DNA of 64,000 nucleotides from positions 2,667,945 to 2,731,944 of the forward strand of contig CAVWBS010000001.1 in NCBI GenBank assembly GCA_963753325.1, read 5' to 3'. Source of the stretch: an uncultured delta proteobacterium (GTDB lineage: Bacteria; Desulfobacterota; Binatia; UTPRO1). A model generated the notes under the pieces. That model made no database searches and was not told the DNA's origin. It saw only the letters and a list, made by a program, of their open reading frames with translations. The translations under genes were made by a program, and so were the position numbers. This document shows positions 10,281 through 22,436 of the stretch, piece by piece (position 1 is the first letter of the stretch; each line of letters begins with the position of its first letter).

Positions 10281-13499
<3,219 letters not shown>

Positions 13500-13500
13500 G

Positions 13501-14640
13501 TCAGCCTTTCGTGCGCGCCATCAGCTCGACGAAGCGGTGGAAGAGATACTGCGCATCGTGCGGGCCGGGCGACGCCTCGGGATGGTACTGCACGGAGAAG
13601 AGCGGCTCCTTGGTGTGCGTGAGCCCCTCGACGGTATGGTCGTTGAGGTTCTGGTGGGTCAGCTCGGCGAGACCGCGGAGCGAGTCGATGTCGACGGCGA
13701 AGCCGTGGTTCTGCGAGGTGATCTCGACCTTCCCCGTGGTGACGTCCATCACCGGGTGGTTGGCGCCGTGGTGGCCGAACTTGAGCTTGTACGTGCGCCC
13801 GCCGAGCGCGAGGCCGAGGATCTGGTGGCCGAGGCAGATGCCGAAGATCGGCACCTTGCCGATCAGCCCGGCGACGCTCTGGCGCGCGTACGGCACGGCA
13901 TCGGGATCGCCGGGGCCGTTCGAGAGGAAGACGCCGTCCGGCCTCTGCGCCAGCACGTCGGCCGCGGAGGTGGAGGCCGGGACGACGCGCACCCGGCAGC
14001 CGCTCGCGACCAGGTTGCGCAGGATGTTGAACTTGATGCCGTAGTCGTAGGCGATCACGAACGGCCGCGGACCGCTCGTGGTCGGGGGCGCAGCACCCGC
14101 GAGCTGCCACGGCGGCGCGTCCCAGTCGTAGGGCTCGGTGCACGTCACCTCGCGCACGAGATCCACGCCGACCAGGCCCGGACGCGCCTTCGCCTTGGCC
14201 ACCAAGCGCGCCGGGTCGAGATCGACCGTGGAGATGACGCCTTCCTGCGCGCCGTGGGTGCGCAGATGGCGGACGAGCGCGCGAGTGTCGATGCCGGCGA
14301 TGCCGACGATCGCGTGCGCACGCATGTAGTCGCCGAGGCTCTGCTCGGCGCGCCAGTTGCTCGCCGAGTCCCAGTACTCCTTGACGATGAAGCCGGTGAC
14401 GAACGGCCGCCGCGACTCGCTGTCTTCGCGGTTGACGCCGACGTTGCCGATCTCCGGGTACGTCATGGCGACCAGCTGCCCCGAGTACGACGGATCGGTG
14501 AGGATCTCCTGATAGCCGGTCATGGCGGTGTTGAACACGACCTCACCGCCGGTCTCGCCGTCGGCGCCGAACGCGGTGCCCCGGAACATCGTGCCGTCGG
14601 CAAGCGCGAGTACGGCCGGCCGTGCCTTGTCGTCGCTCAG
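13501..14640 (-). CDS. carA: Carbamoyl-phosphate synthase small (glutaminase) subunit; start uncertain
   Basis: ORF 13501..14589 (..[34 protein letters not shown]). The conserved N-terminal strand [13 protein letters not shown] lies upstream of the first ATG. The only in-frame start-like codon after the pyrC TAG is CTG at 14640, 6 nt after GGAAGGAAGGAG. Confidence 0.85.
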
Positions 14641-14658: not shown

Positions 14659-15954
14659 CTAGCGGCGGACCCGGGCTTCGCTCTCGCCGATCACGCGCCC
14701 GCCGATGCAGACACCGACGGCGCGCCCGCGCAGCTGCGTTCCCGCGAATGGGGTGTTGCGCGAGCGCGAGCGGAAGGTGGCCGGCTCGACGGACCAGGGC
14801 TGATCGGGATCGAGCAGCGACACGTCGGCAGCGGCGCCGCGGGTGAGCTGGCCGCTCGTGAGGCCGAGAATGCGCGCCGGACCGACGGTCAACGCGCGCA
14901 CCGCCGTCGCCGGCGAGAGGCAGCCGGCGTGGACCAGCGCCAGGGTCAGCCCGACGGCCGTCTCGAGACCGACGATGCCGAACGGCGCCGCGGCGAGCCC
15001 GCGCGCCTTCTCGTCGGCGTGATGCGGCGCGTGGTCCGACGCGATCGCCTCGATCGTGCCGTCGGCGAGCGCCGCGCGCACCGCCTCGACGTCGGCGGCA
15101 TCGCGCAGCGGTGGATTCATCTTGGCGTTGGCGCCGTGCGTCTCGACCGCGGCCGCGTCGAGCGTGAAGTGGTGCGGCGTCACCTCGGCGCTCACGCCGC
15201 GCGCGGTGGCGCGGACGCGCCGGATGTGCGCGATGCCGGCCGCCGTGCTGATGTGCGCCACGTGCAGGCGTCCGCCGATCTCGACCGCCAGCGCGCAATC
15301 GCGCGCGATCATCCGCGCCTCGCCCTCGCCCTCGACGCCGCGCACCCCGAGACGCTCGGCGATCGGCCCCGCCTGCATCGCGGCTCCCGCGCTCAGCGTG
15401 CGGTCCTCCTCGTGGGCGATGATCGGCATGCCGAGCTCGCCCGCGGCCTCGAGCGCGCGCCGCATCACCGCCTCGTCCATGATCGGCAGGCCGTCGTCGG
15501 AGAAGGCCACCGCGCCGGCGCGGCGCAGGGCCGCGAAATCGGTCAGCTCCTCCCCGGCCAGGCTCTTCGTGACCGCGGCCACCGGCACGACGCGCGCCAG
15601 GCCGACCTCCGCTGCCCGCTCGCGGATCCAGCGCGTCACCTCGGCGTCGTCGTTCACGGGATCGGTGTTCGCCATGGCCGCGACCGTCGTGAACCCGCCC
15701 GCGACCGCCGCCGCCACGCCGCTCGCGATCGTCTCCTTGTGCTCGCCGCCGGGCTCGCGCAGGTGGACGTGCATGTCGATGAGGCCCGGCGTCACCCAAA
15801 GGCCGGCGGCGTCGAGCACGGCCCGCGCGCGCGGGCCCTCGCCGGGCGAGGCGACGCCCATGATCTTGCCGTCGTCGATGAGCACGTCGCCGATGACGTC
15901 GAGCGAGCGCACCGGATCCAGCACGCGTCCGTTCCTGATCGCGAGATCGATCAT
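14659..15954 (-). CDS. pyrC: Dihydroorotase
   Basis: Intact 431-aa ORF with GLIDMHVHLREPG (HxH metal ligands), ..ASDHAPH.. and an overall amidohydrolase pattern. It sits between pyrB and carA. Confidence 0.9.
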   Translation of the reverse strand: MIDLAIRNGRVLDPVRSLDVIGDVLIDDGKIMGVASPGEGPRARAVLDAAGLWVTPGLIDMHVHLREPGGEHKETIASGVAAAVAGGFTTVAAMANTDPVNDDAEVTRWIRERAAEVGLARVVPVAAVTKSLAGEELTDFAALRRAGAVAFSDDGLPIMDEAVMRRALEAAGELGMPIIAHEEDRTLSAGAAMQAGPIAERLGVRGVEGEGEARMIARDCALAVEIGGRLHVAHISTAAGIAHIRRVRATARGVSAEVTPHHFTLDAAAVETHGANAKMNPPLRDAADVEAVRAALADGTIEAIASDHAPHHADEKARGLAAAPFGIVGLETAVGLTLALVHAGCLSPATAVRALTVGPARILGLTSGQLTRGAAADVSLLDPDQPWSVEPATFRSRSRNTPFAGTQLRGRAVGVCIGGRVIGESEARVRR

Positions 15955-15964
15955 CGGGCGCGCC

Positions 15965-17878
15965 TCATGCCGCCTTCGGATCGACGTAGGAATAGATGAC
16001 GACCGTGTCCTTGTGCTCGCGATCGAGCTCGCGCAGGCGCACCCGCACGCGCTCGTGCGGCGCCGTCGGAAGGTGCTTGCCGACGTAGGTCGGCTTGATC
16101 GGCAGCTGACGATGCCCGCGGTCGATCAGGACCGCAAGCCGCGCCTCGCGCGGCCTCCCGTAGCGCCAGATGGCGGCGAGCGCCTCCTTGACCGTCCATC
16201 CCGAGTTGATCACGTCGTCGACGACGACCACCGAGCGATCGGCGATCGGTACGGGGTCACCGTCGGCACCACTGCCCGGCCAGCGCTGGATCGCGTCCGA
16301 GCCGGCGTGCACGTCGACGACTCCGAGCTCCACCTCGACGCCGCGAGCGGCACGGATGCGCTCCGCCAGGCGATGCGCCAGATAGGCGCCCGCGGTCTTG
16401 ATGCCGACGATGACGAGATCGTTCAACTCCGGCGTCTCCGCGAGGATGGCGTCGGCCAGCGCCGCGAGGCTGCGCTCGATCTCGCCGGCGTTCATGATCG
16501 CCTTCTGCGGACCGAGCTTGTACGGCTTGTACCCCGCTTCCTCGGCTTGTTTCACCGAGTCGAAGATCACGAGGGTGCCGTCGCGCATCCACCCGTCGAG
16601 GTAGCCGTACATCGGCTCCTCGTAGACGTGGAAGTGCCGCGACTTGCGGTTGCCGATCACCTGGATGCGCACCTCGTGCTCGCAGTAGAGGCACACGAGA
16701 TGGCCGCCCCCGCCACTCTCGCGACGCAGGCGGAAACGGCGCTCCGACGCGACCTCCTCCCGCCGCGTGACGCAGTTCGCGTTGCCGCAGCGCGGGCCGA
16801 CGCGGATGGTGCCCTCGCTGCGCGGCAGCGCGCGAGGCGTCGCCGCCGCGGCGCCGCGGTGATCGAGCAGGAACGTGACGAGCGCCATGCGCACCGGGAC
16901 CCCGTATGCCGCCTGCTGGAAGTAGACACTGCGCGGATCGCGGTCGAGCGCCGCCGAGATCTCGCCCGTACGCGGCAGCGGGTGCATGAGCAGCGTGTGG
17001 CGCATCGACGGATCCTGGAACGTCTCCTGATCGACGCGCAGATACTCGACGCCATCGTCCGCCGTCTCCTGCCGCTCGCGCTGCTGGCGCGTCATGTAGA
17101 GCGCGTCGAGCGTGATCGGCTCGGCCGCCGCCAGCCGCTCCTCCAGGTCGAACTCCTCGTCAGTGAAGAGCGTCAGCTGATGCGGCTTGGCCGGCGTGAG
17201 GTAGAGCGCGTGCACGTCCTGCGCGAGCGCCTTCAGATCGTCGGGGCGCGCGATGCGCGGTCGGTAGGCGTACTCGTCCGCGAGCTGCTGCAGCAGCCAC
17301 GCCGGGAACTCCATCCCGCGCACCGGCACGATGACGATGTTGGCGCCGAAGCGTGCCAGCGCGCGCACCAGCGAGTGCACGGTGCGGCCGTACTTGAGAT
17401 CGCCGCCGACCGCGACCGTCAGGCCCTTCAACGTGCCCTTGGCACGGCGCAGGGTGTAGAGGTCGCAGAGCGTCTGCGTCGGGTGCTCGTGGCTGCCGTC
17501 GCCCGCATTGATGACCGGAATGTCGGCGCTCTCCGCCGCGAGGCGCGCCGCGCCATCCCAGAAGTGCCGCACGACCAGCAGATCGGCGTAGCTGGAGATC
17601 ACCTTGATGGTATCGGCGAGCGTCTCCCCCTTGGCGGCGGACGAGCTCTTCATGTCGGAGGCGCTGATGACGGCGCCGCCGAGCCGCCACATCGCCGCCT
17701 CGAACGACAGCCGGGTGCGCGTGCTCGGCTCGTAGAACACCGTCGCCATGATCGCGCCGGCGGCGGCGTGCACCTTCTCGCGGCTCTTGAGGGCGGCCTC
17801 CATGCGCTCGGCGCGGCCGAAAATCTCCTCGATCTCCTCGTCGGCGAGATCGGCGATGGCGAGCACGTCGCGCGTCAT
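15965..17878 (-). CDS. pyrB: Aspartate carbamoyltransferase catalytic chain fused to a PyrI-type zinc domain, an Ada-like Cys-less module and a PyrR-like phosphoribosyltransferase domain
   Basis: Uninterrupted 637-codon ORF.
- aa 1-338 form the ATCase (EPSTRTR, HEHPTQ, MHPLPR).
- aa ~358-405 are the zinc domain: PRCGNANCVTR..LVCLYCEHEV.
- aa ~406-456 are GNRKSRHFHVYEEP..LVIFDSVKQAEEAGYKP.
- aa ~460-637 are VVVVDDVINSGWTVKEAL..LIDRGHRQLPIKPTYVGKHLP.
The ATG overlaps the pyrR stop (ATGA at 17875-17878). Confidence 0.85.
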   Translation of the reverse strand: MTRDVLAIADLADEEIEEIFGRAERMEAALKSREKVHAAAGAIMATVFYEPSTRTRLSFEAAMWRLGGAVISASDMKSSSAAKGETLADTIKVISSYADLLVVRHFWDGAARLAAESADIPVINAGDGSHEHPTQTLCDLYTLRRAKGTLKGLTVAVGGDLKYGRTVHSLVRALARFGANIVIVPVRGMEFPAWLLQQLADEYAYRPRIARPDDLKALAQDVHALYLTPAKPHQLTLFTDEEFDLEERLAAAEPITLDALYMTRQQRERQETADDGVEYLRVDQETFQDPSMRHTLLMHPLPRTGEISAALDRDPRSVYFQQAAYGVPVRMALVTFLLDHRGAAAATPRALPRSEGTIRVGPRCGNANCVTRREEVASERRFRLRRESGGGGHLVCLYCEHEVRIQVIGNRKSRHFHVYEEPMYGYLDGWMRDGTLVIFDSVKQAEEAGYKPYKLGPQKAIMNAGEIERSLAALADAILAETPELNDLVIVGIKTAGAYLAHRLAERIRAARGVEVELGVVDVHAGSDAIQRWPGSGADGDPVPIADRSVVVVDDVINSGWTVKEALAAIWRYGRPREARLAVLIDRGHRQLPIKPTYVGKHLPTAPHERVRVRLRELDREHKDTVVIYSYVDPKAA

Positions 17879-18405
17879 TGCAGCCGTACCTCGTCGGCGC
17901 CGTCGAGCTCGCGGACGCGGACGTGCACGCGGCGCCGCTCCCCGTGAGGGAGGTTCTGGCCGACGAAATCGGCCTTGATCGGCACCTGGCGATCGCCGCG
18001 ATCGACGAGCGCCGCCAGCTGAACCGCCCGCGGGCGGCCGAGCTCCCCGAGCACGTCCAGCGCAACCCGGACCGTCCGCCCCGTCGAGATCACGTCGTCG
18101 ATCAGCACCACGACATGCTCGTCGATCGGCAGCGGCACGTCGGTCGCGGTCACCTCGATGCGCTCGCGCGGCTGCTCGACGTCATCCCGATATGCCGTGA
18201 TGTCGATCGAGCCGACCGGCACCTCCTGGCCCGTCAGCTCGCGGATCTTGCCCGCGATCCGCTCCGCGAGATGCACACCGCGGGAGCGGATGCCGACGAG
18301 CACGAGCGTGGCGACCTGGGGATTGCGCTCGACGACCTCGTGCGCGATGCGCGCCAGGGCGCGTTGCATCTGCGCTGCCTCGAGCAGGAGGCCCTCCTCA
18401 GCCAT
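17875..18405 (-). CDS. pyrR: Bifunctional pyr operon regulator / uracil phosphoribosyltransferase PyrR (canonical copy)
   Basis: Intact 176-aa ORF: ..RALARIAHEVVERN..LVGIRSRGVHLAERIA..IDITAYRDD..VVLIDDVISTGRTVRVAL..LVDRGDRQVPIKADFVGQNLP. Confidence 0.9.
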   Translation of the reverse strand: MAEEGLLLEAAQMQRALARIAHEVVERNPQVATLVLVGIRSRGVHLAERIAGKIRELTGQEVPVGSIDITAYRDDVEQPRERIEVTATDVPLPIDEHVVVLIDDVISTGRTVRVALDVLGELGRPRAVQLAALVDRGDRQVPIKADFVGQNLPHGERRRVHVRVRELDGADEVRLQ

Positions 18406-18409
18406 GATG

Positions 18410-18448
18410 CAATAGAGAAAAGCCCTCCCGGCCGCAGCCGAGAGGGCT
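18410..18448 (-). promoter_or_regulatory. Intrinsic-terminator-like hairpin plus U tract in the pyrR leader (putative attenuator)
   Basis: In minus sense the stem is AGCCCUCUCGGC-UGCG-GCCGGGAGGGCU: 12 bp, of which 11 are Watson-Crick and 1 is G.U. It is followed by UUUUCUCUAUU and ends 5 nt before the pyrR ATG. In plus sense the stem carries an A.C mismatch and has no T tract. Confidence 0.5.
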
Positions 18449-18553
18449 TTCGAACGAGTGGGACACGAACGTGGAGAGGGTCACCGGACCGACCTTTCCT
18501 GACCTCGCAGGGTCAGATTAAAAGGTTCAAATGCTACGTACGCCCGGTGGTGG

Positions 18554-18955
18554 ATGATGTCAAGCAACGATCCCGCCGAGGCGTTTCGCCTCGACAAGTG
18601 GCTCTGGGCCGCGCGCCTCTTCAAGACCCGCGCGCTCGCCGCGGTCGCCGTGGACGGCGGCAAGGTGCACCTGAACGGCGCGCGCACGAAGCCCGCCAAG
18701 CAGGTGAATGTAGGCGACCTCCTCGTCATCCAACGGGGTGAGGACGAGCGCACCGTTCGTGTTCTCGCCCTCTCCACCCGGCGCGGTCCGGCCCCGGTCG
18801 CCGCCATGCTCTACGAGGAGACCGCCGAGAGCCAAAGCGCCCGGAGCAAACGTGCGGACCGTCGCGGCCTGATGCCGCAAGCTCCTCGTGCGGACGGGCG
18901 CCCCTCGAAGAGGGACCGCAGGGCTCTCACGCGCCTCACCCGGGGTCGCTACTAG
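18554..18955 (+). CDS. hslR: Ribosome-associated heat-shock protein Hsp15 (S4 RNA-binding domain)
   Basis: Intact 133-aa ORF: FRLDKWLWAARLFKTRALAAVAVDGGKVHLNGARTKPAKQVNVGD, followed by a basic tail. Confidence 0.85.
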   Translation: MMSSNDPAEAFRLDKWLWAARLFKTRALAAVAVDGGKVHLNGARTKPAKQVNVGDLLVIQRGEDERTVRVLALSTRRGPAPVAAMLYEETAESQSARSKRADRRGLMPQAPRADGRPSKRDRRALTRLTRGRY

Positions 18956-19101
18956 AGCGGCCGACGGTCCGCGGCGCCCACCGCGGAAGCTTGAGCCGCC
19001 GTTCTCCGCGAGGTAGAGGAACCCGCTCGGGCGCCACGCGGGGTGTCTCCACCTCGCGCCGGAGGCTCCCGAGCGGCACCCACTCCGTAACTTCGAGGGC
19101 G

Positions 19102-20682
19102 ATGGGAATCTTTACCCGACACGCCCTGACGGGTCGCGAACCAGCTACGTCAGGTTCCGATGGCGGCGGGGAGGAGGTCTGGACCCTTGTTCGCGACCGT
19201 TGGCGTCCGCTTCGCAGGCGCGATCGGCGATACGGCGCCGTCATGCTCGCGGTGTTCCTCCTCGGCGCCTGGCGATGGGCGGCGTTCGTCGGCTACGGGC
19301 AGCCCGGGCTGCTGACGTACATGGACTGGACACGCGCCGGTTACTACTACGCGGCGGTGGAAGATTCGCTGCGCCACTGGACTCTGCCGCTCTATTATCC
19401 CAGCGGCCTCGACGGCGAGTGGGTGAACTTCTACTGGGCGCATCCCGACACGCCCCTGCTGCCGCACATCCTCCTCCTGCGCTTCCTCGCGCCCGGAACC
19501 TTCATCCTGCTGACCACGCTGGCCTTCTACGCGGCGGGATGCGCGGGCGTACTCGCCCTCGCGCGACGCTACGACTTCTCGTTGACCGCCACCCTCCTCC
19601 TGGCAGTGCTGTTCCTGGGGAATGGCTACATCGTCGGGCACCTGAGGGCGGGACACGTCGCGTGGCTCGCGTACTTCCTCGTCCCCTGGTGGTGCGTGTA
19701 CACCTGGGCGCTTGCCGACGGGGTGGTCCTCCCGGGCACCGGCCTCGCGCTGGGGAGCATCCTGGCGCTCATCCTGCTGAACGGCGCCACGCACATCGCG
19801 ATCTGGTGCTGGGTCGTTCTCGCGATCATCGCGGCGACCCGCCCGCGCACGGCCCTCGCCGTCATCCACGGCGCCTGCTGGTTCGTGCTCATGACGGCGA
19901 TTCGTCTCGTGCCGACGCTCACCGTGTTTCCGCTGGACGTCGTCACGCACTTCGCGTGGCTCGGCGGCTACCGCTGGAACTTGCTCCTCGCCGCGATATT
20001 CGGCGGACAACCCTGGATACGGCTCCTTCACCCCTACGAGTGGGAATACGATGCCTACCTTGGCGGGCCGGCGATTTTGTTCCTCATCCTGTGCGGACTG
20101 CTCCTGCCGTTCTTCCTCCCGGGTCGCGGCCGCCACATCCGCCTGCTCGCAGCCGTCTCGCCGTTCGTCTTCGCCATGTGCGGAGACTCGATTGCGATTC
20201 TCCGCAACAATCCCAGCATTCCGCTCCTGAGCGGCGAGCGCATACCGACGCGCATGGTCATCATGCCGATCGTCGTCCTGATCATTCAAGCGTGCTGGTC
20301 GTTGGACCGGGTCTTGAAGCGGGCGGGTCCCGCACTCCGGCGTCCGCTCGTCACGTGCGCCGCCCTCCTCCTCTGCCTGACGACCGCCCAGCTCTCGGCA
20401 TACATGATCGTGAGCGCGCCGATCCCGCGGTCGCAGCTCATCGTTCCCCCGCCCTATTCTCCGACGAAGCCGAGCGGGAGCGGCTGGGGGGTGATGCCGA
20501 TCGCGGAGATCGAGCACGACCCACGGAGCACGAAGCGCGAGGTGACCTTCGACATGATCTATGTGGCCGCGATCAAGATGGGCGCCTTGATTACCGGCGC
20601 GGGTCTCGTCCTCGCGCTCGCACAGACACGCCGGGTCGCGGCATCCGGGAATTCGCGCCGGCCACCCGACGTCTCCCCGTAG
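19102..20682 (+). CDS. Polytopic integral membrane protein, function unknown (GT-C-like glycosyltransferase is only a guess)
   Basis: ORF 18991..20682. ATG at 19102 is the first plausible start. There are more than 10 hydrophobic segments (e.g. VMLAVFLLGAWRWAAFVGY, GTFILLTTLAFYAAGCAGVLAL, IAIWCWVVLAIIAA). I recognise no diagnostic motif. Confidence 0.55.
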   Translation: MGIFTRHALTGREPATSGSDGGGEEVWTLVRDRWRPLRRRDRRYGAVMLAVFLLGAWRWAAFVGYGQPGLLTYMDWTRAGYYYAAVEDSLRHWTLPLYYPSGLDGEWVNFYWAHPDTPLLPHILLLRFLAPGTFILLTTLAFYAAGCAGVLALARRYDFSLTATLLLAVLFLGNGYIVGHLRAGHVAWLAYFLVPWWCVYTWALADGVVLPGTGLALGSILALILLNGATHIAIWCWVVLAIIAATRPRTALAVIHGACWFVLMTAIRLVPTLTVFPLDVVTHFAWLGGYRWNLLLAAIFGGQPWIRLLHPYEWEYDAYLGGPAILFLILCGLLLPFFLPGRGRHIRLLAAVSPFVFAMCGDSIAILRNNPSIPLLSGERIPTRMVIMPIVVLIIQACWSLDRVLKRAGPALRRPLVTCAALLLCLTTAQLSAYMIVSAPIPRSQLIVPPPYSPTKPSGSGWGVMPIAEIEHDPRSTKREVTFDMIYVAAIKMGALITGAGLVLALAQTRRVAASGNSRRPPDVSP

Positions 20683-21116
20683 TCCTGGCGGCGAAAAGCC
20701 TTCTACCGCTTGCCCGTCGGCATGACGGCCCGATTGGACCGTTCACCCGCGCCGCATCGGGGCCGCAGCGAGGAGGTGCTCGGGCTCACCTCGGCCGTAC
20801 GGCTCCAGCGGATCATCGCTCGCTCCCGCGCGTGGCGTCGGTAGGTTCGTCCGCGGGGTGATGTCTCGCGAGCAATGACTGCAACTCCGGGTCGCTCATC
20901 CAAGCCGAGAGGATGGGCTGGCGCGCCATCGCCTCCGGCCACCGCAATGGACGATCGGCACGATGGAATCGAACGCGCGTCCCGCGGAAGTCGGCGTAGC
21001 GAAACCTTCCGGATGTCCCGGCGCAGGCTGCTGACTCCCAAGCAGCTGGTGAGCGAGCCATCGAGCGACCGAGCAGGGGCAACAAACGCGCGCCAGGAGC
21101 GTGCGGCGCCGCGGCG

Positions 21117-21946
21117 CTATTGCAGCTCGAACCGCTCCCGCAGCACCTTGAGCAGCGCGACGTTGTCGCTGTGGCCGGTCATCTGGGCCGTGACGAACCC
21201 GCGGAGCGGCCGCCCGAGCAGGTAGAAGTCGCCCATGATGTCGAGGATCTTGTGGCGCACCAGCTCGTCGGGGAAGCGCAGCGGCGTGTTCACGACACCG
21301 TTCTCGCCGATCAGGATGCAGTTGTGCAGCCGCCCGCCGCTCGCGAGGCCCATCTTCTCGAGGGTCTCGATCTCGCGCAGGAACCCGAAGGTGCGTGCCG
21401 GCGCGATCTCGCGCTTGAAGTCCTCGGTGCCGCCGAGACTGAAGGTGAACTCCTGTCGCCCGACGGGGTCCGGGTACTCGCAGGACGTAGTGGACGCCGA
21501 ACGTGTCGGCGGGCTCGATGGCGATGTACTCGCCGTCTCGCGGTCGCCGATCTCGTAGCGGCGATCGATCACGATCTCGTCGACGGCGCCGCCCTGGTCC
21601 TCGACGCCGGCGCTCTCGAGCAGGGCGCAGAACTCCGACGCCGAGCCGTCGAGGATCGGGATCTCGCCCTGCATCTTCACCAGCAGGTTCGTGATGCGAT
21701 AGCCGTGCAGCGCCGCGAGCAGGTGCTCGACCGTCTTCGCGACGATGCCGTCGTGGAAGAGCGTGGTCGCGTAGCCGGTGGAATCGACGTACTCGATCCG
21801 CGCCGGGATCGTCGCGGCCGTGGAGATGCTGCCGAAGACGATGCCGCTGCCCGGCGGGCAGCGGCTGCAGGATCAGCCCGGTGCGAATGCCGGAGTGCAG
21901 GCCCTGGCCGTTCGACGACCACGCTGCGGCTGATGGTGCGCTGCAC
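21117..21946 (-). CDS. lpxC: UDP-3-O-acyl-N-acetylglucosamine deacetylase; about 4 apparent frameshifts in this sequence
   Basis: The GTG at 21946 gives (M)QRTISRSVVVE. After a shift come GQGLHSGIRTGLILQPLPAG (frame of ORF 20896..22431), then ..VKMQGEIPILDGSASEF.. and REIAPARTFGFLREIETLEKMGLASGGRLHNCILIGENGVVNTPLRFPDELVRHKILDIMGDFYLLG (ORF 21117..21680). Confidence 0.85.
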
Positions 21947-22428
21947 CCACGGGCGCTGCGCCGAGCGGGCGCGCGAGCGTGGCGCCGGCGGCGTCGAGGT
22001 CTGCCCTCGACGGTCGCCGGCGCCTCGGCGGGCTGCGACTCGAGCGCGCGATCGACGACGTGCAGCAGACCGTCGAGCGAGAACGGCTTCTCGATGAAGT
22101 CGAAGGCGCCGAGCTTGGTCGCGGTGACGGCGGTCTCGATGTTGCCGTGACCGGAGATGACGATCACGGGCGTCACCGGGTCCGAGTCGCGGATGCGGCG
22201 CAGGAGCTCGATGCCGTCCATCTCCGGCATCCAGATGTCGAGGATGACGAGCCGCGGGCGCTCGCTCTCGATCAGCTGCAGGGCGCCACGCCCATCCTCG
22301 GCCTCGAGCACGCGATAGCCCTCGTCGGCCAGGATGCCGCGCACGCTCTGCCGGATGCCCGCCTCGTCGTCGACGACGAGAATGGTCTCCAGCCCCAAGC
22401 TCGACGCCGGATCGTGTTCGATACCCAT
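21947..22428 (-). CDS. Receiver-only response regulator with NtrX/NtrC-class REC domain; 3' end not determinable from this sequence
   Basis: MGIEHDP..ILVVDDEAGIRQSVRGILADEGYRVLEAEDGRGALQLIESERPRLVILDIWMPEMDGIELLRRIRDSDPVTPVIVISGHGNIETAVTATKLGAFDFIEKPFSLDGLL. The ATG at 22428 lies 4 nt after AGGAGG. No AAA+ or HTH domain follows. The as-given frame runs on into lpxC (ORF 20896..22431). Confidence 0.7.
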
Positions 22429-22436
22429 CACCCCTC

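Follow-up and report, generated by a model that had tools for sequence, protein, structure and literature searches.

An aspartate transcarbamoylase gene of Candidatus Binatia that carries a PyrI-type zinc domain, an Ada-like module and a diverged PyrR domain on one chain

The gene described here lies in a stretch of 64,000 nucleotides (the window) from an uncultured delta proteobacterium, a soil bacterium of the candidate phylum Binatota (assembly GCA_963753325.1, contig CAVWBS010000001.1, positions 2,667,945 to 2,731,944 of the forward strand). It is a pyrB gene (15965..17878, minus strand; 637 codons plus stop) whose product joins an aspartate transcarbamoylase (ATCase) catalytic domain, a linker, a PyrI-type zinc domain, an Ada-like module and a PyrR-like phosphoribosyltransferase (PRTase) domain. 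The open reading frame (ORF) listing of the window gives it as a single, uninterrupted frame of 637 amino acids (aa) with an ATG start, in agreement with the initial annotation, which was made by a model from the DNA letters. The families which that annotation expected from a domain-library check, OTCace_N/OTCace, PyrI_C and Pribosyltran, are all found above their Pfam gathering scores, and Pfam and NCBIfam place the module boundaries essentially where they had been drawn. The guanine plus cytosine (G+C) content is even over the whole ORF (0.68-0.71), and the AlphaFold2 (AF2) model of the entire chain, with a predicted local distance difference test (pLDDT) of 81.5 and a predicted template modelling score (pTM) of 0.71, suggests a defined arrangement of the domains relative to each other.

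The fusion is colinear with 112 full-length homologues (49-94% identity), and residues are called invariant below with reference to an alignment of 113 full-length family sequences. In the family alignment the mean column identity is 0.65-0.79 in the modules and 0.35 in the linker, the sole poorly conserved stretch of the fusion, and all four parts are therefore under selection. The same four Pfam domains recur in more than 110 full-length protein clusters (49-94% identity). A scan with one genome per species recovered the motif of the middle module in 169 genomes, so the taxonomic spread, which the initial annotation had left to be checked, comes to 169 species, nearly all of them represented by metagenome-assembled genomes (MAGs) of Candidatus Binatia. 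The locus-level counts in this report refer to the best 80 of the 169 genomes, almost all labelled Candidatus Binatia, Binataceae or 'delta proteobacterium' MAGs. Stops or frameshifts between the modules in relatives had been among the worries of the initial annotation; the frame is a complete single ORF in 67 of these 80 loci, is cut only by a contig end in five and is interrupted in eight. All eight interrupted copies belong to 'MFD' MAGs, and four of the eight have a broken pyrC or carA as well. In 77 loci the genes stand in the order pyrR > fusion > pyrC > carA, and a contig end cuts the other three. This architecture is the standard pyrB of Candidatus Binatia and not a rare variant.

These counts bear directly on the suspicion that indels in the assembly, or errors of annotation, have joined pyrB, a pyrI remnant and a second pyrR in one frame. 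The window does contain indel errors, for instance two compensating frameshifts in carB, but the same single ORF is present in more than 110 protein clusters of independent assemblies, and it is complete in the 67 of 80 species-representative genomes and colinear with its orthologues. An artefact is thus effectively refuted by the intact ORF in independent assemblies, and we give it next to no credence.

The ATCase catalytic domain (aa 1-340; 16859..17878, minus strand) was delimited by Pfam, NCBIfam and the family alignment. It matches OTCace_N over aa 3-144 (E 1.4e-48, 165.2 bits against a gathering score of 29.9), OTCace in two stretches (E 4.1e-21, 76.1 bits against 29.4) and the ATCase equivalog TIGR00670 (291.1 bits against a cut-off of 236.95). 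Judged by the residues STRTR, R105, HPTQ, R167, R229/Q231 and HPLPR in Escherichia coli numbering, all catalytic motifs are present and invariant (STRTR 52-56, R104/H105, HPTQ 132-135, R165, T263/R264/Q266 and HPLPR 299-303; n=113). The chain is therefore complete, as first proposed, and the explanation that we favour takes the enzyme to be catalytically competent. Among solved structures, phmmer scores are highest for the enzymes of Pyrococcus abyssi and Methanocaldococcus jannaschii (253 bits), followed by those of Arabidopsis (216), E. coli (210) and Bacillus subtilis (137), and Foldseek gives a template modelling (TM) score of 0.88 to the P. abyssi ATCase 1ml4. With its best Protein Data Bank (PDB) matches in P. 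abyssi, M. jannaschii and E. coli, the catalytic domain is, by sequence, a member of the PyrI-partnered ATCase lineage.

The aspartate domain contains a family-specific insertion (roughly aa 229-256; 17111..17194, minus strand), recognised from the alignment to P. abyssi and from its invariant columns. It had been put at ~35 aa before the YMTR segment and proves to be real, with a length of ~38 aa (residues 201-256 of the fusion correspond to P. abyssi 204-221). On one side it is flanked by a 'DALYLTP' strand that looks duplicated, on the other by the catalytic 'DALYMTRQQRER' strand (YMTR). Its mean column identity is 0.67 and P229, P232, H233, L235, L237 and T239 are invariant, and pLDDT is low over 232-242. 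Two like strand motifs, 'HALYLTPAK' and 'DALYMTRQQ', flank the insertion (17111-17210, minus strand, aa 223-265), and hhalign pairs them over nine columns ('dAlYLtP.q / DAfYmTR.Q', probability 24%). This hints at, without establishing, a local duplication of the strand that carries the catalytic R229/Q231 of E. coli numbering; an origin of the insertion by tandem duplication of the YMTR strand and the 240s region is not claimed on a nine-column match of 24%.

A variable linker of 17 aa (aa 341-357; 16808..16858, minus strand; column identity 0.35, pLDDT below 50 over 344-355) leads from the enzyme to the PyrI-type zinc domain (aa 358-405; 16664..16807, minus strand). PyrI_C (PF02748) matches aa 363-406 above its gathering score (E 3.4e-7, 30.4 bits against 23.4), and the ligands C364, C369, C396 and C399 are invariant, which bears out the zinc domain recognised in the initial annotation. 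Also invariant over the 113 homologues are N366 and N368, corresponding to Asn111 and Asn113 in the CPNSNC motif of the E. coli regulatory chain. The segment aligns to E. coli PyrI 109-149, and all 11 of its 11 best PDB sequence matches are ATCase regulatory chains. The allosteric nucleotide-binding domain of PyrI (PF01948) finds no match at E <= 1 in the fusion protein in Pfam, and merely the 17-aa linker separates the ATCase from the zinc domain; the reported absence of that domain is hence upheld.

Between the zinc domain and the PyrR-like domain lies the middle module (aa 406-457; 16508..16663, minus strand), a conserved beta-beta-alpha-beta-alpha unit that weakly resembles the Ada metal-binding domain in its predicted fold and has none of the cysteine ligands. 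Its column identity of 0.69 matches the conservation of the enzyme itself, G409, W430, F439, K443, A445, E446, E447 and G456 are invariant, and AF2 predicts the fold confidently (pLDDT ~80). A Foldseek search of 350,542 PDB chains returned three structures of the N-terminal domain of Ada (N-Ada; 1u8b, 1wpk and 1zgw) as its top matches, although weakly (E 0.5, probability 0.89, TM 0.54). When the module profile was compared by hhalign with one built from 27 Ada domains, the probability was 85% (P 5.8e-6) over only 23 columns, in the register that the initial annotation had proposed. Ada_Zn_binding (PF02805), which had been suggested as a check, stays below its cut-off in the window protein (12.7 bits against a gathering score of 23); it is found as a sub-threshold match in 18 of 37 members (best E 0.0062) and is the sole recurrent sub-threshold Pfam match. 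The profile of the middle module gave no significant match among PDB sequences (best E 0.22), and in a large protein collection it retrieved only four fragments, all of them from this family, with the module in no other setting.

The zinc ligands of Ada are C38, C42, C69 and C72. The middle module has 0-2 cysteines over the family, and hhalign places Tyr453 at the position of C69 and Gly456 at that of C72, so the statement that the Ada cysteines are replaced holds. The Ada-like claim itself is weakly supported: three independent methods, Foldseek, hhalign and the recurrent sub-threshold Pfam match, point in one direction, each of them weakly, whereas the Pfam score does not make the module a member of the family. 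We therefore describe it as Ada-like, in the sense of a remote resemblance in fold. It resembles the N-terminal domain of Ada (PF02805; 1u8b) in predicted fold (TM 0.54) and in a '...v.F.s...A..aG[FY].P.K' segment, but it lacks the four zinc-ligand cysteines and the methyl-acceptor cysteine, and shows no sign of DNA binding.

The C-terminal PyrR-derived domain (aa 458-637; 15968..16507, minus strand) matches Pribosyltran over aa 459-601 (E 1.1e-15, 57.7 bits against a gathering score of 26.3) and NF003549, the bifunctional PyrR model, over aa 458-623 (152.6 bits against a cut-off of 138), and the PyrR-like PRTase assignment is thereby sustained. The four other PyrR models fall under their cut-offs (NF003547 143.6/230, NF003548 138.1/218, NF003546 112.1/268 and NF003545 87.8/140). 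The domain scores 123 bits to B. subtilis PyrR (1a3c) with ~170 residues aligned, and it is ~41% identical to the canonical PyrR encoded immediately upstream (176 aa; 17875..18405, minus strand; NF003549 206 bits against 138). These comparisons support the fused domain as a diverged paralogue of PyrR.

For a comparison of residues, 79 fused domains and 79 neighbouring canonical PyrRs were aligned to B. subtilis PyrR. We take the RNA-binding surface of the latter to consist of T18, R19, H22 and R27 on helix 1 together with R141, R146 and K152, and mutagenesis by Savacool and Switzer in 2002 reportedly found the helix with the first four residues essential for RNA binding. The canonical neighbours retain R15, R19, H22 (or M), R27, YRDD (~97%), GRT, R141, R146 and K152. 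In the fused domains of the 79 genomes, by contrast, R19 is changed to A/S, H22 to D and R27 to D/E, and the net charge of helix 1 is -3.6 ± 1.7 compared with +1.4 ± 1.4 in the canonical proteins. The YRDD motif is likewise lost (Y to P/G, R to A/E/D and the second D to A), GRT is mostly GWT, and the change from DITAYRDD in the canonical PyrR to DVHAGSDA in the fused domain, pointed out in the initial annotation, is confirmed by alignment. What the fused domains retain are the acidic pair and the G-x-T of the phosphoribosyl pyrophosphate (PRPP) loop, which reads VDDVINSGWT in the window, and the equivalents of R141, K/R146 and K152; D554, D555, G560 and T562 are invariant (n=113), and RGHR is conserved. 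The ~170 aligned residues, the acidic pair and RGHR are shared with PyrR of B. subtilis (1a3c) and Bacillus caldolyticus (1non), whereas the acidified helix, the missing YRDD, GWT in place of GRT, a C-terminal extension (IYSYVDPKAA) and the covalent link to an enzyme set the fused domain apart. Judged by these residues, the fused copy seems to be a domain that still binds nucleotides but has lost the binding of RNA and probably its catalytic activity. Two divergent members of the family, P0129 and P0146, have kept FRDD/YRDD and GRT, which suggests a progressive specialisation from canonical PyrR.

The PyrR dimer binds uridine mono- or triphosphate (UMP, UTP) and guanosine mono- or triphosphate (GMP, GTP); when loaded with UMP or UTP it binds RNA with a concave, basic surface, an interaction that guanine nucleotides counteract (PMC7430163). 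PyrR proteins are moreover obligate dimers with uracil phosphoribosyltransferase (UPRTase) activity (PMC7430163), and the fused domain could accordingly be read as an active UPRTase for salvage, joined to the ATCase for co-expression or co-localisation, with the zinc and Ada-like modules as spacers. Such a bifunctional enzyme would fit the invariant two acidic residues and Gly-x-Thr of the PRPP motif, the score above the cut-off of the bifunctional PyrR model and the FRDD/YRDD and GRT kept in the two divergent members. Yet the flexible-loop YRDD that ~97% of the canonical PyrRs keep is replaced in the 79 Binatia genomes, the arginine of the pyrophosphate (PPi) loop is variable and is Ala in the window, and it would be left unexplained why the PyrI docking domain is retained, with its zinc ligands and the Asn residues of its interface invariant. 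We consider this reading unlikely.

A few observations concern the wider family. A second sub-family of fusions (e.g. P0076; ~50% identity) has GRT and not GWT, and lies in the order pyrR > fusion > carA > carB with no pyrC between; the locus L081 3458-9959 (contig ctg33932, 3.36 Mb) belongs to this GRT type. Three metagenome contigs of 2.3 kb (L082-L084; P0146, P0129) hold very divergent fusions with 32-40% identity in the C-terminal half, one of them from a Lys-rich, apparently low-G+C organism, and given these contigs the family evidently reaches beyond the Binatia genomes seen. Two fusion loci are labelled Candidatus Acidiferrales (L046) and Trinickia sp. (L067, a 1.6-kb contig); they are probably mis-binned Binatia contigs and not true occurrences in those taxa. 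In a protein library clustered at 50% identity few representatives are fusions (P0121, P0129 and P0146). Chains of 313-327 aa that seem to consist of the zinc, Ada-like and PyrR modules alone (P0122 and P0123) were rejected as a stand-alone form. They are truncated gene calls whose first residues, 'MALIAWL' or 'MALLKFL', belong to the helix at the C-terminus of the ATCase domain. Members are annotated in the source records as merely 'ATCase catalytic subunit' or 'PyrR', and because of this the fusion architecture goes unrecorded.

The operon opens with a candidate PyrR-binding leader RNA that includes an intrinsic terminator hairpin (18414..18529, minus strand; RF00515) directly upstream of pyrR. 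A permissive local search matched RF00515 over its full length with 48.7 bits (E 2.6e-5), below the gathering score of 54, and Rfam at the gathering threshold over the whole window gave no match. A G+C-rich hairpin followed by a U-run stands at the end of the leader, just before the pyrR ATG. The orthologous leader of another locus (L002, 4147-4262) scores 57 bits, above the gathering score, and that of a Binataceae locus (L020) 40.7 bits. Together these matches indicate classical PyrR attenuation in a Binatia bacterium, as far as sequence can tell. With a canonical pyrR upstream of the fusion in 77 of 80 loci, and with the attenuator matched at the loci just named, regulation at the level of RNA thus has its own means already. 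The ATG of the fusion overlaps the stop codon of pyrR (ATGA), by which the two genes are translationally coupled, and behind the fusion follow pyrC (14659..15954, minus strand; an ordinary amidohydrolase-type dihydroorotase (DHOase) by appearance), carA (13501..14589, minus strand) and carB (10281..13499, minus strand).

It is against this background that a role of the fusion in RNA binding has to be weighed, which the initial annotation had offered as an alternative. The fused PyrR domain would then make the ATCase a 'trigger enzyme': by binding the pyr leader or some other RNA, the domain would let the ATCase report the status of the pathway to gene expression. The domain does derive from PyrR and retains the equivalents of R141, R146/K and K152, the operon leader does contain a PyrR-binding site, and in Ada the fold of the adjoining module binds nucleic acid. 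However, helix 1 is acidified (R19 to A/S, H22 to D, R27 to D/E; -3.6 versus +1.4), and a canonical PyrR with intact signature and with its own site upstream is always encoded next door. We hold an RNA-binding ATCase to be very improbable, and the earlier suggestion is disfavoured.

The same neighbourhood admits another coupling, in which the PyrR-like domain heterodimerises with free PyrR and titrates it on or off RNA depending on the state of the ATCase, which would tie the activity of the enzyme to attenuation of the operon. In favour of this, the genes of the two paralogues always occur together, with their translation coupled by the ATGA overlap, PyrR is an obligate dimer (PMC7430163), and the identity between the two is ~41%. 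But such partner switching is purely inferential, 41% identity and a divergent helix 1 argue against a conserved hetero-interface, and the zinc domain is left unexplained. It seems improbable to us.

The reading that we favour is that the fusion is an ATCase with a built-in regulatory apparatus, in which a PyrR-derived nucleotide sensor is tethered to the enzyme via the PyrI zinc domain, and we give it about an even chance of being right. It is preferred because of the PyrI-partnered ancestry of the catalytic domain, the invariant zinc site with the Asn residues of CxNxNC, the constraint on the modules and the pTM of 0.71. Natural PyrB-PyrI fusions form a curated family (NF009916), so the order from catalytic to regulatory part can work on one chain. 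Building on the domain identities, the conservation, the lost RNA-binding signature and the operon context established here, we infer how docking, dimerisation, effector and allosteric effect might be arranged in the fusion. The PyrI-type zinc domain would attach to the catalytic trimer at its carbamoyl-phosphate domain, in the manner of the E. coli-type enzyme, with the Ada-like module as a rigid adaptor. The PyrR-derived domain would take a nucleotide at the retained PRPP/5'-phosphate loop, most likely UMP or UTP, and a guanine nucleotide or PRPP may antagonise it, as in PyrR. It would probably also dimerise like PyrR and so join two trimers of fused chains in a hexamer with D3 symmetry, comparable with the c6r6 assembly. 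The signal of the ligand would pass through the zinc domain and shift ATCase activity, giving feedback at the level of the enzyme, while transcription of the operon would be under the separate control of canonical PyrR and the leader attenuator.

Two points weigh against this self-regulated ATCase. The sensor lies on the opposite, C-terminal end of the zinc domain, compared with N-terminal in PyrI, and therefore the E. coli signal path from allosteric to zinc domain cannot simply be assumed. Furthermore, the PPi-loop arginine (R42 of B. subtilis PyrR) is variable in the fused family (R40, H25 and A14; Ala in the window), and because of this and of the change from GRT to GWT the ligand specificity may differ from that of PyrR, or binding may be weakened. 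The earlier idea of a swap, in which the nucleotide-sensing half of PyrI is replaced by a PyrR domain, accordingly survives in modified form: a sensor docked via the zinc domain is the best-fitting reading, but the exchange is not like for like, as the sensor is C-terminal and attached via a module of ~50 aa. A plausible history starts with a read-through fusion of pyrB and pyrI, followed by loss of the allosteric domain, of which the linker now marks the place, and by gain of the Ada-like and PyrR modules at the C-terminus.

ATCase serves textbooks as the model of an allosteric enzyme, and only a few regulatory arrangements are known for it: PyrI, the PyrC' of class A, direct UMP binding in plants, and unregulated trimers. 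The fusion comes closest to the E. coli-type (class B) PyrB6-PyrI6 enzyme, with which it shares the catalytic lineage (36-40% identity, TM 0.82-0.88), the zinc pattern CxNxNC...CxYC of PyrI 109-149 and the presumed logic from sensor to zinc domain to trimer. It differs in that the PyrI domain for cytidine and adenosine triphosphate (CTP, ATP) is missing and the sensor is a PyrR-type PRTase fold, placed C-terminal to the zinc domain via the Ada-like module, and in that everything is one polypeptide with a 38-aa catalytic insertion. Fused PyrB-PyrI proteins (NF009916 / PRK13376) also carry catalytic and regulatory parts on one chain with the catalytic part first, but they have a complete PyrI (allosteric plus zinc), and the window protein reaches 93.6 bits against the NF009916 cut-off of 800, over aa 3-184 only, within the catalytic part. 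The class A enzyme, composed of Pseudomonas PyrB and the inactive DHOase PyrC', resembles the fusion in having a partner other than PyrI drawn from the pyrimidine pathway, yet there the partner is a separate DHOase-like protein and nucleotides bind to the catalytic chain itself, and the pyrC of the fusion operon looks ordinary. No curated family covers the fusion architecture in our comparison with Pfam and NCBIfam. The literature searched, which leaves most subscription journals outside, gave no description of a PyrB-PyrR or PyrI-PyrR fusion and nothing relevant on pyrimidines in Binatota; the initial annotation knew of no such architecture either. It looks like an undescribed way of nucleotide control over ATCase, although an earlier report is possible.

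Some further features of the window may be recorded. In carB (10281-13499, minus strand) the frame is lost and regained ~150 codons later (window ~10690-11160), and a different frame gives the correct CarB sequence (LMNVQYAV...); the two compensating indels are probably assembly errors. An ORF of 511 aa (20896-22431, minus strand) begins with a receiver domain of the response-regulator type (aa 17-126), after which it crosses lpxC in the wrong frame; LpxC profile positions 92-266 are read in the overlapping ORF 21117-21680 (minus strand). Either there is a further frameshift here, or a receiver domain stands immediately ahead of LpxC or is fused with it. Divergent from the pyr operon is a gene with an S4 domain (Hsp15-like; 18554-18955, plus strand), beside which lies an ORF of 563 aa for a multi-pass membrane-like protein (18991-20682) with no Pfam match.

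Taken at its fullest, the fusion would represent a new class of allosteric ATCase, nearly confined, among the genomes examined, to Candidatus Binatota, in which the zinc docking domain of PyrI has stayed and the CTP/ATP domain has been exchanged for a neofunctionalised PyrR paralogue on a Cys-less Ada-fold adaptor, with a c6-type assembly bridged by PRTase-fold dimers, regulated by UMP or UTP and perhaps antagonised by a guanine nucleotide or PRPP. We rate this full account as possible, somewhat short of an even chance. If true, one ancestral protein would have given rise to regulators of the same pathway at the level of RNA (free PyrR) and at the level of the enzyme (fused PyrR), a clean case of duplication and sub-functionalisation in which one PyrR copy keeps RNA binding and the other loses it and joins an enzyme. 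It would also show that evolution can change allosteric control by swapping one sensor module for another while the element that transmits the signal is conserved, and the fusion would be a ready-made system in which to ask how a signal crosses the zinc domain. In practical terms, the presence of the fusion is nearly diagnostic for Binatia genomes.

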